NCBI GenBank assembly: GCA_038867615.1
Contig: JAWBYA010000001.1
Location: 128,001-192,000 of the forward strand
Source: Sulfolobales archaeon
GTDB taxonomy: Archaea > Thermoproteota > Thermoprotei_A > Sulfolobales > AG1
Direction of reading: 5' to 3'
Length of the DNA: 64,000 bases
In this document: in pieces, positions 11,724-36,207 of the stretch
How positions within the stretch are numbered: position 1 is the stretch's first letter
How the letters are laid out: each line of letters starts with the position of its first letter
Notes under the pieces: generated by a model
The model's input: only the letters and a program-made list of their open reading frames with translations
Told to the model about the DNA's origin: nothing
The model's database searches: none
Made by a program: the position numbers and the translations under genes

Positions 11724-12523
11724 GAGAGGATCTAAGAGCCCTTCTCCTGGTAACCCTATGGGATGTTAGGAAGGTTGCTAGGTATAAAGTATTCCTCCTA
11801 ATGAGGTTCGCCTGGTTTATAGTCCAGGTCTCTGTATTCGCTGTCATGATATCATATCTAGTAACAATAAGATCTCTGGGGACATCGGGTATAGGTTATT
11901 ACGAGTACTATCTCTTCGGCGCATACACAGCACTCCTATTCTCGATCTCCATGTTCAGGGGGTATGAGATCGCTGAGGAGTTTGAGGAGGGTATTATAGA
12001 GTATCAATTATCACTCCCGATCAAGAGGAGAATACTTGCTATTGGGAGGACAATAGGTGGAGGTATTGCCTCGTTCATATACACATTGCCAATGATGCTC
12101 TTCATACTATTACTACTCGGGATCACAAACCCTGTCTTAATAGCGATAGCCATTCTATCGGCACTAGCATTCTCAATAGGTATTGTGGGTTTAGCCATAA
12201 ACATAGTCTTTGGCCTTAAATCAGGCGATAAAACAGACATCCTGTTCGGCGTTGTTGATGCCCTGCTCGTGAGGCTCAGCACGATCTTCTACCCACTCCC
12301 CTTCCTATCGGTCTTTCCACCGTATTTCTATGCTGCTATGTATAACCCGCTCTCAAACATGGCTGATTTTCTGAGAGCCCTCTTCTTCTTCCAAGACCTC
12401 AAGATCTTCATACACGCTCCCCCAGAGAACCTGATATCCTATATAGTAGGGCTTGCAGTAGGCTTGTCAATCCTAGCCATGCTCTTCATAGAGAGGAGGG
12501 TTGAGGGTGGTGGGTGGAAATGA
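11720..12523 (+). CDS. ABC-2 type permease
   Basis: About 6 TM helices, STIFYP and NPLS motifs, coupled to the ATPase. Confidence 0.85.
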   Translation: MREDLRALLLVTLWDVRKVARYKVFLLMRFAWFIVQVSVFAVMISYLVTIRSLGTSGIGYYEYYLFGAYTALLFSISMFRGYEIAEEFEEGIIEYQLSLPIKRRILAIGRTIGGGIASFIYTLPMMLFILLLLGITNPVLIAIAILSALAFSIGIVGLAINIVFGLKSGDKTDILFGVVDALLVRLSTIFYPLPFLSVFPPYFYAAMYNPLSNMADFLRALFFFQDLKIFIHAPPENLISYIVGLAVGLSILAMLFIERRVEGGGWK

Positions 12524-13293
12524 GGTCATATGCTAGGGGTATACAGATAGTGGTTATGAGGGATCTTGATAGGTTCTGGAAGTATAAGTGGTGGCTCGCA
12601 GGCCTGATCACAATGAACCTGACAGATCTCTTTATATTCGCCCTGATATTTAATGGGATAGTTAATAGAGCCTATATAGATAACTACCTATTATTCATAG
12701 CACCAGGTATAACGGCTATAGCAACCTTTGCATCAGCCTTCTCAATAGGGAGGGAAGTGGGAGTAGAGGTTAGGAGAGGCTATACACAATATCTACTAAG
12801 CCTCCCGCTCACAAGGTTTCAGCTATCAATCGGCAGGATCCTTGGGGGCGCTTTGAGGGGGCTTATATACCAGATCCCCTTCATAGCCCTTCTCCTAATA
12901 CTATACTGGAGCATCCCGAGTATAGAGAAGTTCTCGATCATGATCGCTACATCGGTTATGCTCACGATATCGATGTCAAGCCTCTCAATAACGATCTCAA
13001 CAGCTGTTAGGAGCTTCGATCTCCAGGCTACTATGAGGAGTTTCACGTATTTCGTGCTATTCTTCTTCTCAAACGTATTCTACCCAGATGCATTGATAAG
13101 GAAGTACTTCCCAGAGATTCTATATATAATTATATCCAACAACCCTGTCTCCATAGCTACCAGCATATACCGCTGGATCTTTGGTGTAATGCCTGTAGAA
13201 GATCCATTAATACTAGTGATTAAAATGATCATATGGTGCTTGGTGTTCTTCATACTAGGCAGCTTCTTCTATCTAAGAAACCTCATGGCATAG
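12514..13293 (+). CDS. ABC-2 type permease
   Basis: APGI, SNVFYP and NPVS motifs, about 6 TM helices. Confidence 0.85.
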   Translation: MEMRSYARGIQIVVMRDLDRFWKYKWWLAGLITMNLTDLFIFALIFNGIVNRAYIDNYLLFIAPGITAIATFASAFSIGREVGVEVRRGYTQYLLSLPLTRFQLSIGRILGGALRGLIYQIPFIALLLILYWSIPSIEKFSIMIATSVMLTISMSSLSITISTAVRSFDLQATMRSFTYFVLFFFSNVFYPDALIRKYFPEILYIIISNNPVSIATSIYRWIFGVMPVEDPLILVIKMIIWCLVFFILGSFFYLRNLMA

Positions 13294-13323
13294 ATAACCA
13301 TGGCGCATGCTAACTCTATCACG

Positions 13324-13695
13324 CCGTAGCCAGCTGCTTCGAGCTTCATGATGGTTTATAAGGATTGATATTAAACTCGAGGTTCTGCAGTAATGGAACA
13401 TTATATAAGCTCTTATATTTCACTGGGATGACCGCCCAACAATGAGGGTAAAAATAAAGACCCGAGGGGCGGGTTAAAGGCAAAAAGAGATCCAGGATGT
13501 GGAGGTTTCCCCACAGCAATGAACCAGAGAAACTCAATGAAGGGGAGCTGTGGGTTGGGGTCACCCTGAACGGGTGGAAGCCGAGGATATGGGCCCCAAT
13601 GAAAGGAGCCCTGAGGCCTATGAAACCAAGGGCTGAGCGGTTGATATCAAGCAATATCAACCGCTATGAAGCCTGAACCCCTAAGGCTACAAAGG
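13324..13695 (+). mobile_element. Non-autonomous IS607/tnpB-derived element, family B copy 1
   Basis: Close homolog of 35303-35599; begins CCGTAGC; imperfect inverted ends; 12-bp stem 13636-13647/13654-13665; right boundary uncertain by a few nt. Confidence 0.7.
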
Positions 13696-13812
13696 TTAGG
13701 GATATCTAGATTTGTTCCTGGTTTCAGCACTATCGTGAAATACCCTGCCAACTGTATCGATAAGGGATCATGTTTAGGATACCTTTTTATACCCCCTAGG
13801 ATATCTTTTTAA

Positions 13813-15423
<1,611 letters not shown>

Positions 15424-35140: not shown

Positions 35141-35302
35141 GAGTAAATTTCTTATATGCTTTTAAGCGGTTTCAGTAGTTCCAGGGCGGTTGAAATGATA
35201 GGCATTGTTTTACTATACCGATCGATAAGCTGTGAAGAAGACCCAATCTGCAGCTTTTAGTACTCTCCATGCATCAAAGCCTAGAAACCTTTTAGAACAA
35301 TG

Positions 35303-35599
35303 CCGTAGCTAACTGTTTCAGATTTCATGATGGTTTATAGGGGTTGATATTAAACTCGAGGTTCTGCAGTAATGGAACATAGTATAAGCTCTATGTAGTT
35401 TACAGTAGATCCGGGATGTGGGGGTTTCCCCACAGCAATGAGCCAGAGCAAAGCTATGAAGGGGAGCTGTGGATCGGGGTCACCTCGAACGGGTGGAGGC
35501 CGAGGATATGGGCCCCAATGATAGGGGCCCTGAGGCCTATGAAGCCATGGGAAGAGCGGTTGGTATAAAAATCAACTGCTATGAAGCCCGAACCCCTGG
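35303..35599 (+). mobile_element. Non-autonomous IS607/tnpB-derived element, family B copy 2
   Basis: Homologous to 13324-13695 at the left end and over ~190 nt of the right end; internal spacer is shorter. Confidence 0.7.
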
Positions 35600-36207
35600 A
35601 GTGATAACCTATACCCACCGATATTAAGTTTTATTGTAGGAGGTGTGGTTGTAGTATCAATGATAGCTAGGAGATCGTCGAAAGGATTGATCCTAATGGA
35701 GATCCAGCGGTTAACAATAACCCCGCTGGGTTGGGAGACCCCGTACGAGATGTAGAGAACACCCTCCCTAGCTCTGACCGTGGAGTAGAGGTCCGGGCCT
35801 TCCAGATCCTCGGGCTCTGGATCCTCTGAGAAGAGAAGGGTTAACACGCCTTCTCGCCTAAACAGCATACTGCTCCATGGTTTCTCACCCCTCTCTAGGC
35901 AGTAGATCTCTATACAGTCATGGACAGCGGATCTTCTGCATATGTTGTAGCCGTGTTTCCTCATATTCACGTATACAGCTACATCATCGTAGGATGATGG
36001 GATTACCAACGAGTAGCCGCATTTATCGTAAACCTCTTTGAGCATGTTCTCATATAGTAGGAAGATCTTTGAGAGGGGCCCGACTATGAAGAGGATATCA
36101 GATCTGCAGTTCGTCTCGCTAATAGTCCTCAGGGCCTTCTCACCCCTAGCGATCATGATTCTCACTCCTTGTTTCCTGCATCTGCAACCTCTATGTTCGC
36201 TCTCCAT
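35572..36207 (-). CDS. Hypothetical protein
   Basis: 211-aa ORF coupled to the upstream DUF447-like gene; last codons lie inside the family B element. Confidence 0.55.
   Translation of the reverse strand: MESEHRGCRCRKQGVRIMIARGEKALRTISETNCRSDILFIVGPLSKIFLLYENMLKEVYDKCGYSLVIPSSYDDVAVYVNMRKHGYNICRRSAVHDCIEIYCLERGEKPWSSMLFRREGVLTLLFSEDPEPEDLEGPDLYSTVRAREGVLYISYGVSQPSGVIVNRWISIRINPFDDLLAIIDTTTTPPTIKLNIGGYRLSLQGFGLHSS

Follow-up and report, generated by a model that had tools for sequence, protein, structure and literature searches.

Gene-less derivatives of an archaeal IS607-type tnpB element with a conserved omegaRNA-like scaffold and two TATA-like boxes

Two short repeats in a 64,000-nucleotide stretch of a Sulfolobales genome (the window, hereafter) belong to a single repeat family, of which the 2.2-Mb genome of this archaeon contains 44 or more right ends. 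We are highly confident of what these copies are, namely gene-less internal-deletion derivatives of an IS607-type transposon. The explanation as a whole, in which each derivative retains a promoter and a guide-RNA scaffold that is usable in trans, is the one we favor with moderate confidence; that the elements are expressed and used is a more tentative proposal, possible but somewhat doubtful. An earlier note, made from the letters of the window, had read the copies as a stand-alone omegaRNA scaffold behind a retained promoter. The core of that reading largely stands, through the descent from a tnpB gene, the covariation of the scaffold and the shared TATA motif, whereas its extension to TldR proteins is not supported.

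A Repeat Family with Defined Ends

The two copies in the window (copyA, 13324-13681, and copyB, 35303-35596) align with a mean column identity of 80%, and blastn matches copyB to copyA over positions 1-90 at 87.8% and over positions 165-359 at 86.2%, so that the common left and right ends reported before are both present. A genome-wide search returned 53 matches and a more sensitive blastn 103 HSPs, given which the resemblance of the two copies is far above chance. Near-full-length copies number 17-18, each of about 350 nt and 78-89% identical, and several deletion variants occur in addition. The boundaries were taken from 18 aligned copies with their flanks, which differ from copy to copy and show no relation: The element starts with CCGTAGCC (13324, with a G before it) and ends with GAACCCC (13681). 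Per-column conservation changes abruptly at the edges of copyA, being 0.47 before and 0.92 after the boundary at 13324 and dropping from 0.86 to 0.38 beyond 13681. The ends proposed before, 13695 for copyA and 35599 for copyB, are thereby moved to 13681 and 35596, the extra 14 nt of copyA being unique flank and the would-be guide. The parts of the element outside the scaffold are as follows, T1 being the tnpB locus described below.

13321..13323, + strand: left flank of copyA (ACG), target/TAM-like position, from the junction base bias
13324..13681, + strand: copyA, 358-nt non-autonomous element (CC...CC), from the conservation jumps in the 18-copy alignment
35303..35596, + strand: copyB, 294 nt, of the "dC" subfamily, without the 5' hairpin module, from alignment and blastn
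13324..13378, + strand: left end including TATA-1 (TTTATAA, 13355-13361), homologous to the left ends of tnpA_S-tnpB elements
13401..13408, + strand: TATA-2 (TTATATAA), homologue of the TATA box ahead of the T1 tnpB, from conservation and the T1 match
35380-35387, + strand: TATA-2 variant of copyB (TAGTATAA), from the alignment
13432..13472, + strand: 5' hairpin module (CCGCCC...GGGT/ACCC...GGGCGG), from the zinc-ribbon coding part of tnpB, 78% match to T1
13497..13676, + strand: relic of the TnpB C-terminal tail frame, 59 codons

Between their ends the copies had been described as carrying different short spacers. The spacers do differ in length, but they are not random: That of copyA is a 74-nt stretch (13414-13487) that forms a conserved family module with a hairpin, as seen in an alignment of 28 tnpB-less copies, and the subfamily of copyB (dC) has lost it. 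As had been claimed, no nuclease or transposase is encoded inside, the two open reading frames (59 aa on the + strand, 104 aa on the - strand) having no Pfam match. Of 29 copies, 28 are intergenic, with unbiased orientation relative to the neighboring genes. CopyA itself lies 31 nt past one + strand ORF (12514-13293) and 144 nt ahead of another (13825-15423), and all three point the same way. Transcription from the promoters of copyA could extend into the gene that follows, or transcription from upstream could pass through the element.

Descent from a tnpB-Bearing Element

A search of the genome with the Pfam TnpB zinc-ribbon profile gave five tnpB loci. One of these, T1 (C1:11376-12743, 456 aa), lies outside the window, and the right 190 nt of the mini-element are 90% identical to C1:12511-12701, which covers ~70 codons at the end of T1 plus the adjoining downstream DNA. 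The T1 protein matches the Pfam TnpB domain with an E-value of 8e-14 and scores 63.9 bits against NCBIfam guided_TnpB, below the cut-off of 100 bits. It is the single intact copy in the genome; T2 is a second copy with two frameshifts, and T5 is a relative with 38% identity. The small ORF at 13497-13676, whose resemblance to the C-terminal tails of archaeal TnpB had been pointed out before, reads as given and is 77% identical to T1 residues 373-442, so that the resemblance was correctly noted.

The similarity to T1 extends beyond the right end. The first ~49 nt of the mini-element are 76% identical to the left end of T1, 29 nt of its TATA region align with the corresponding region ahead of the T1 start codon (76%, E 0.048, a promoter homology that is weak when taken alone), and positions 13431-13473 match DNA internal to the T1 tnpB (78%) that encodes the first CxxC of the zinc ribbon. 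These matches to the left end, the TATA region and tnpB-internal DNA identify the mini-element as an internal-deletion derivative, in agreement with the origin proposed in the earlier note; its suggested search of the ends for a tnpB-bearing parent leads to T1, and its supposition of a cognate TnpB encoded elsewhere is borne out by the one intact T1. We collected 77 distinct right ends from seven genomes of the family. Eight of them, in five genomes, end a T1-like tnpB with at least 300 aa matched, 59 are without tnpB, and 10 follow a partial tnpB, nine of these owing to the short flank examined.

The T1 protein keeps both CxxC pairs and three candidate acidic residues: D206 and E286, each present in all 12 orthologues, and D362, present in 11 of the 12. 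These presumably belong to the RuvC motifs, judging by the usual motif patterns. Their spacing was compared with that reported for SisTnpB1 (10.1101/2023.03.06.531077).

Transposon Type and Mobility of the Family

A serine-recombinase tnpA directly upstream of tnpB is found in the T1 lineage and not in this genome, where T1 and the mini-elements are without tnpA. In eight of nine distant T1 orthologues, tnpB is preceded by an ORF with an overlap of ~22 nt (two of the eight are truncated, and one locus is without such an ORF). Two upstream ORFs were scanned, and these encode an HTH_17/MerR domain followed by a Resolvase domain; judged from these predicted domains, the tnpA-tnpB arrangement of the distant orthologues is the IS607 layout. 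The alignable sequence of seven distant full elements begins with G|CC, and CC stands at both the left and the right junction of the element. At the site of copyA the genome G004 has an empty allele (ACG-CT-TAAG, against ACG[CC..CC]TAAG here), without target duplication, and the orthologous site is occupied in G001. For copyB the empty site is found in G001, where 6 nt separate the flanks, with an exact right junction and again no target duplication. These insertion differences show that the family has been mobile since the divergence of the sister species. Both comparisons thus give no duplication and the same dinucleotide at both junctions, as in IS607 elements, the dinucleotide being CC and not the published GG. 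The upstream serine-recombinase tnpA, the CC junctions and the lack of duplication together indicate a parent of IS607 type, not of IS200/IS605 type; an IS605-like reading with a ..GCC adjacent motif may still be entertained beside it.

The left flank is biased in base composition across 24 junctions (G at -1 in 22; A in 13 and C in 6 at -2; A in 15 at -3), and this left-flank motif suggests a G/C-rich adjacent motif; the right flank shows no bias. In place of the CC of the occupied alleles, the two empty ones (L106 of G004, compared with window 13323-13325, and L111 of G001) read CT or TT. At the left junction of copyB, four of six bases differ (AATGCC at window 35299-35304 vs. GCTGTT in the empty allele). 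These changes could be ordinary divergence, or the alleles could be ones that escape re-insertion or cleavage. The copies do not have the terminal inverted repeats and direct repeats of classical MITEs: There is no target duplication, and the inverted similarity between the ends is imperfect and subterminal (positions 359-407 of copyA against 185-138 of T1, 71%).

Searches of this assembly (94% complete) turned up neither a Y1 transposase nor an IS607-type serine-recombinase tnpA. A Y1 transposase occurs in three of 14 genomes of the family, one of them as a 30-position fragment, and the intact Y1 locus of G003 shows no match to a T1-like TnpB or to the mini-element. In IS607-type TnpA the helix-turn-helix comes first, followed by the catalytic domain. 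The only serine recombinase of the assembly (C23:6589-7206 of this genome, G000) is of resolvase type with its helix-turn-helix at the C-terminus, hence not of IS607 type, and was rejected as the mobilizer; it lies among small unknown ORFs on a 7.4-kb contig, possibly a plasmid or viral fragment. The IS607-type TnpA of the sister genomes was rejected too: It goes with another TnpB type (T3/T4), whose elements have no DNA match to the mini-element and a right end in GG, and their TnpA is therefore an unlikely mobilizer. The recombinase that moved the copies would presumably be a serine recombinase of the parent type. The T3/T4 type is represented in this genome at C1:751-2175(-) and C2:203111-204277(-), with right ends ..ATCCAGGGACAAACGG. 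In G001 and G004 tnpB genes of this type follow an IS607-type tnpA, and the T3/T4 IS607 elements end in ..ACGG; a remnant of a right end of this type lies just upstream of T1 (C1:11000-11060).

A Conserved Scaffold Supported by Covariation

The right part of the element folds into the following conserved structure, given for copyA unless stated otherwise.

13492..13681, + strand: core omegaRNA-like scaffold, made of the tnpB 3' end and the right end (90% identity to T1, pair counts)
13502-13508/13675-13681, + strand: helix 1 of the core
13510-13517/13547-13554, + strand: helix 2 of the core
13562-13566/13572-13576, + strand: helix 3 of the core
13579-13582/13615-13618, + strand: helix 4 of the core
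13591-13597/13605-13611, + strand: helix 5 of the core
13630-13632/13672-13674, + strand: helix 6 of the core
13636-13647/13654-13665, + strand: helix 7 of the core
35411-35596, + strand: core scaffold of copyB, from the alignment

RNAalifold recovered two helices only from the alignment of the 77 right ends, because of indels in the last hairpin, and its result was replaced by a model of seven helices and 44 pairs built from single-sequence folds. In the 77 sequences from seven genomes, 90.6% of cells are paired under this model, compared with 27-53% when the partners are slid; cells with a double change number 178, compared with at most 43, and the covariation score is 0.196, compared with at most 0.07. 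None of 500 shuffles attains the observed score. As the sequences are related and are also those from which the model was derived, which favors it over the slid controls, the count was repeated on an independent set restricted to tnpB-linked copies (17, drawn from 12 genomes), including nine orthologues from four other families with proteins 60-71% identical to T1. Here 94.0% of cells are paired (26-56% with slid partners), with 42 double-change cells (at most 7) and a covariation score of 0.192 (at most 0.068). Helix 1 is a long-range pairing of the 3'-terminal GAACCCC with GGGGUUY near the 5' edge, and shows a UA-to-CG swap in the 17-copy set. G-U pairs are common and assign the structure to the + strand. 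Of the 43 scored pairs, 40 are formed in copyA, 42 in copyB and likewise 42 in the median mini-element of G000, and the core of copyA folds with a minimum free energy of -72 kcal/mol (z = -2.97). The four stems named in the earlier note are all present, as helices 7, 3, 2, and 5, and the conserved + strand structure that it described is upheld by the covariation in both sets.

In T1 the final ~70 codons lie within the scaffold, which stops at the right end, and the same is seen at eight tnpB-linked loci in five genomes and in nine distant orthologues; its location at and beyond the 3' end of tnpB up to the right end, and its conserved structure, supported by pair counts with shuffle and slide controls, are features of an omegaRNA. 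No Rfam family reaches its gathering score anywhere in the window, and a permissive scan of 13300-13720 (E up to 10) gave chance-level matches with a best E-value of 3.8. In the 5' hairpin module, 96.7% of cells pair among 28 tnpB-less copies, all variation being G-U wobbles without double-sided changes, and 500 of 500 shuffles attain the observed paired share; varying solely by wobbles, this hairpin is without independent covariation support. A subfamily with one common deletion junction (dA), which is without helices 2-5, is present at 6-7 loci, and these helices are therefore dispensable for movement. In another type of deletion the lost segment is bounded by a 10-nt near-repeat, and this type may have arisen repeatedly. 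With the central scaffold dispensable for movement, its conservation elsewhere needs another reason.

Selection on individual copies was assessed in 44 mini-elements of three genomes, four tnpB-linked rows having been dropped. Private substitutions are not depleted in stems: The 86 paired columns have 43 and the 99 unpaired columns 42 (P = 0.45). Of the 43 in paired columns, 29 break a pair, which is about the rate expected for neutral change. The copies decay neutrally, with a structure that derives from source elements and is not upheld in each copy by itself, and the lack of detectable selection on the individual copies speaks for selfish-element biology and not for a host function; a host-domesticated role is not supported. 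The reading frame of the TnpB tail has fared differently along the family: It is broken before codon 35 in five of 19 mini-elements of G000 and open for at least 50 codons in 14 of 19, and in copies of the G002 type a loop insertion shifts the frame, with the downstream helices persisting. The ATG at 13497 is conserved. A reading of the 59-codon ORF as a small protein was rejected on these breaks and shifts and on its lack of a Pfam match.

Promoter Motifs, Guides, and Reads

The left end had been described as finishing in a single TATA box, whereas it contains two TATA-like boxes. It aligns with T1 and with seven full elements of other families, and in those seven the TTTATAA box lies ~30 nt ahead of the tnpA_S start. 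The block at 13404-13413, with a conservation of 0.98, is the highest of the left half, and the TATA-2 octamer recurs in T1 and in the two orthologues closest to it, at position -38 relative to the start of tnpB (ATG). The proposal that internal deletion placed the tnpB promoter directly on the scaffold thus agrees with the left end and TATA motif shared with T1, the promoter homology by itself being the weak 29-nt match given above. The genome encodes TBP (in a control search, TBP matches archaea only). Archaeal transcription starts ~26 nt past the center of the TATA box. The predicted starts would then be ~13431 in copyA, one base before the 5' hairpin, and ~35411 in copyB, the first base of the core scaffold; that the predicted start meets the 5' edge of the structured part in copyA and copyB alike is suggestive.

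Past the right end, each copy is followed by its own unique sequence, the predicted guide.

13682..13701, + strand: unique 3' flank, predicted guide of copyA (44 right junctions compared)
35597..35616, + strand: unique 3' flank, predicted guide of copyB (44 right junctions compared)

The 3' flanks are unrelated across all 44 right junctions, as expected from the claim of a different guide per copy, and such a variable 3' guide together with a conserved motif 5' of the left end is the pattern of an omegaRNA. A search of the host genome for targets, which the earlier note had recommended, gave no off-site matches beyond controls: With at most one mismatch, nine of 44 16-nt flanks have an off-site match, compared with 3-9 of 44 for control 16-mers 30-300 nt downstream, and none of the nine matches is preceded by the GCC motif. 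Retargeted guides were accordingly rejected by the matched control. TldR systems combine a nuclease-dead TnpB with guides that match host regulatory targets; here T1 keeps its candidate acidic triad and the off-site matches are not above control, so the suggestion of TldR or retargeting is not supported.

Among indexed RNA runs, none is listed as containing the locus. Read mapping over 3.5 kb, with three metatranscriptomes from hot springs and one contig set, yielded 0, 0, 16, and 0 reads, too few for starts, ends, or strand. About three partial reads fall on the element (13404-13637) and carry the family-consensus G at 13503, and therefore probably come from another copy. The first mate of the element reads lies on the + strand, and that of most reads on the + strand gene 13825-15423 on the - strand. 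If the ~3 partial reads are real, the RNA of the element could be antisense to the scaffold.

Comparison with Known Elements

Palindrome-associated transposable elements (PATEs) are gene-less derivatives of IS200/IS605/IS1341-type elements in haloarchaea (Dyall-Smith et al. 2011, PMC3119063), some of which keep C-terminal tnpB coding remnants and which are attributed to repeat-mediated core deletion (PMC3119063). They are stated to "often encode omegaRNAs" that are acted on in trans by TnpB from elsewhere (Meers et al. 2023 preprint, PMC10055086). As described there, PATEs resemble the present elements in being too short for a protein, in sharing their ends with tnpB elements, in being multicopy and in lacking a target duplication; likewise, the core deletion lies partly between short repeats, a 3' coding remnant of tnpB is kept, and the use of an omegaRNA in trans would be applicable. 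The family differs from the PATEs of those accounts in its IS607-type parent with a serine recombinase in place of a Y1/IS605-type one, and in having no left-end palindrome, CC junctions, two archaeal TATA boxes, and a thermophilic archaeal host. A palindrome (helix 7) is present near the right end only, and no robust left-end hairpin was seen in the 18-copy alignment.

TnpB homing by an IS607-type element has been shown for a clostridial one, the Clostridium botulinum IStron (Zedaveinyte et al. 2023 preprint, 10.1101/2023.11.20.567912), in a study that also used an experimental mini element without both genes. According to that text, the IStron shares with our family a serine recombinase with an N-terminal helix-turn-helix directly upstream of tnpB (here in the distant orthologues), the lack of target duplication, the same dinucleotide at both junctions, a guide from the 3' flank, and a short motif before the left junction (TGGG in the IStron, ..AAG-CC here). 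Unlike the IStron described there, the present family is archaeal, has no intron and has a CC core on the tnpB strand instead of GG, and its copies in this genome have lost tnpA_S and mostly tnpB as well.

Sense-overlapping transcripts (sotRNAs) were reported at the 3' end of archaeal IS1341-type tnpB genes (Gomes-Filho et al. 2015, PMC4615843). They share with our scaffold a non-coding RNA region in and past the tnpB 3' end in archaea, and differ in being attached to tnpB and expressed, whereas the RNA here is predicted and tnpB-less. ISC1733 is of IS607 type. SMN1, a 320-bp non-autonomous element of Sulfolobus islandicus, is said to rely on the transposase of ISC1733 (PMC3718332). It resembles the present elements in belonging to the same archaeal order, in its similar size, in being gene-less, and in using a transposase in trans.

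The concept of gene-less omegaRNA carriers is thus already published with the PATEs, and the advance here is therefore incremental; what is added is the IS607-type parentage, the CC junctions with the ..AAG motif, and a scaffold model that is valid across the order. In the literature searched, of which coverage was partial, no description of an archaeal IS607-derived mini-element with an omegaRNA scaffold was found, which is not proof of novelty. The covariation-supported scaffold model describes an IS607-type archaeal TnpB clade without an Rfam family.

Proposed Explanation and Alternatives

In the explanation that we favor, the full parent is an IS607-type transposon with a serine-recombinase tnpA followed by tnpB, and the copies are its internal-deletion derivatives. 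They have kept the left end with the TATA box of tnpA, another TATA box that is homologous to the one ahead of the tnpA-less tnpB copy T1, in copyA alone a leftover hairpin of the zinc-ribbon coding region, and the last ~190 nt, which in the parent encode the C-terminal tail of TnpB and, as RNA, the omegaRNA scaffold. Transcription from TATA-2 would start ~26 nt downstream, in both variants immediately ahead of the structured part, and the transcript would take in the scaffold and continue into the unique 3' flank, a guide specific to the insertion site. Having a scaffold, its own 3' flank and a promoter, each copy could therefore make an omegaRNA for T1 in trans, and the single intact T1 TnpB could load such RNAs. 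It would then cut the element-free allele (the ..AAG-CC motif plus flank), which would favor re-copying of the element, these cutting and re-copying steps being those of the published TnpB homing model.

The inheritance of dead parts is the likeliest rival of this proposal: The copies would be inert fossils or DNA-level passengers, their RNA structure and TATA boxes parental leftovers, and no guide RNA would be made or used. We regard this as unlikely, although far from negligible. It fits the private mutations, which strike stems as often as loops and in 29 of 43 cases break pairs, the ~3 partial metatranscriptome reads that probably stem from another copy, the 78-90% identity among copies, by which most are old, and a genome with one intact cognate tnpB left and no matching transposase in the assembly. 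Yet the median mini-element of G000 has kept all but one of the 43 pairs, conservation in the left half peaks at the TATA-2 block, the insertion differences between sister species show activity after the split, and neutral decay of old copies is compatible with their use while young. That the helices are instead DNA signals for the transposase, as recombinase sites or hairpins, and not RNA, is an improbable account. The right end must hold recombination signals, there is the imperfect inverted similarity between the ends (71%), and helix 7 is 16 nt from the right terminus; against this, the dA subfamily spread to 6-7 loci without helices 2-5, many pairs vary through G-U, which is C-A on the opposite strand, and helix 1 pairs over ~170 nt. 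In the published IS607 excision assay, moreover, 40 bp of the left end and 60 bp of the right suffice, and IS607 ends are stated there to be free of palindromes (10.1101/2023.11.20.567912).

It is scarcely credible that the copies provide retargeted guides for a nuclease-dead, TldR-like TnpB, or that the 59-codon ORF is a small-protein gene. Many guides with few nucleases would suit the former, and the conserved ATG at 13497 with at least 50 codons open in 14 of 19 mini-elements of G000 the latter, but the off-site matches (9 of 44 vs. 3-9 of 44, none of the nine after GCC) and the acidic triad of T1 speak against retargeting, and the ORF is broken early in five of 19 mini-elements of G000, shifted in G002-type copies whose helices persist, and without a Pfam match; 28 of 29 copies are intergenic, without orientation bias. 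Returning to the derivatives with a usable scaffold, a stronger version would have the ~40 scaffold-bearing mini-elements act as a promoter-driven, dispersed guide library for the single T1 TnpB, maintained by homing after loss of the serine recombinase, with an ..AAG-CC motif and a CC core unlike those of characterized IS607 elements; this we consider speculative and rather unlikely as a whole. If the proposed mechanism of guides used in trans holds, the family would be a natural case of many guides and one nuclease, with ~40 promoter-equipped omegaRNA genes for one thermophilic TnpB, and such sharing would occur in a lineage whose transposase is absent from the assembly. It would also bear on the persistence and movement of tnpB-only and gene-less relatives without a linked transposase, a puzzle raised for haloarchaea (PMC3119063).

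Distribution within the Order

The T1-type clade is present in 55 of 201 sampled genomes of the order. At loci L133-L141, from four other families, the T1-type TnpB is 60-71% identical and mostly single-copy, and the scaffold sequence is near-identical. Horizontal spread of the T1-type element within the order is suggested by these sequence comparisons. Many of the copies in G002 and G003 (e.g., L048, L055, L060, and L067) are tnpB-linked and lie at the ends of contigs. In these two genomes it is apparently the full-length element that proliferates, whereas G000, G001, and G004 contain mostly mini-elements.
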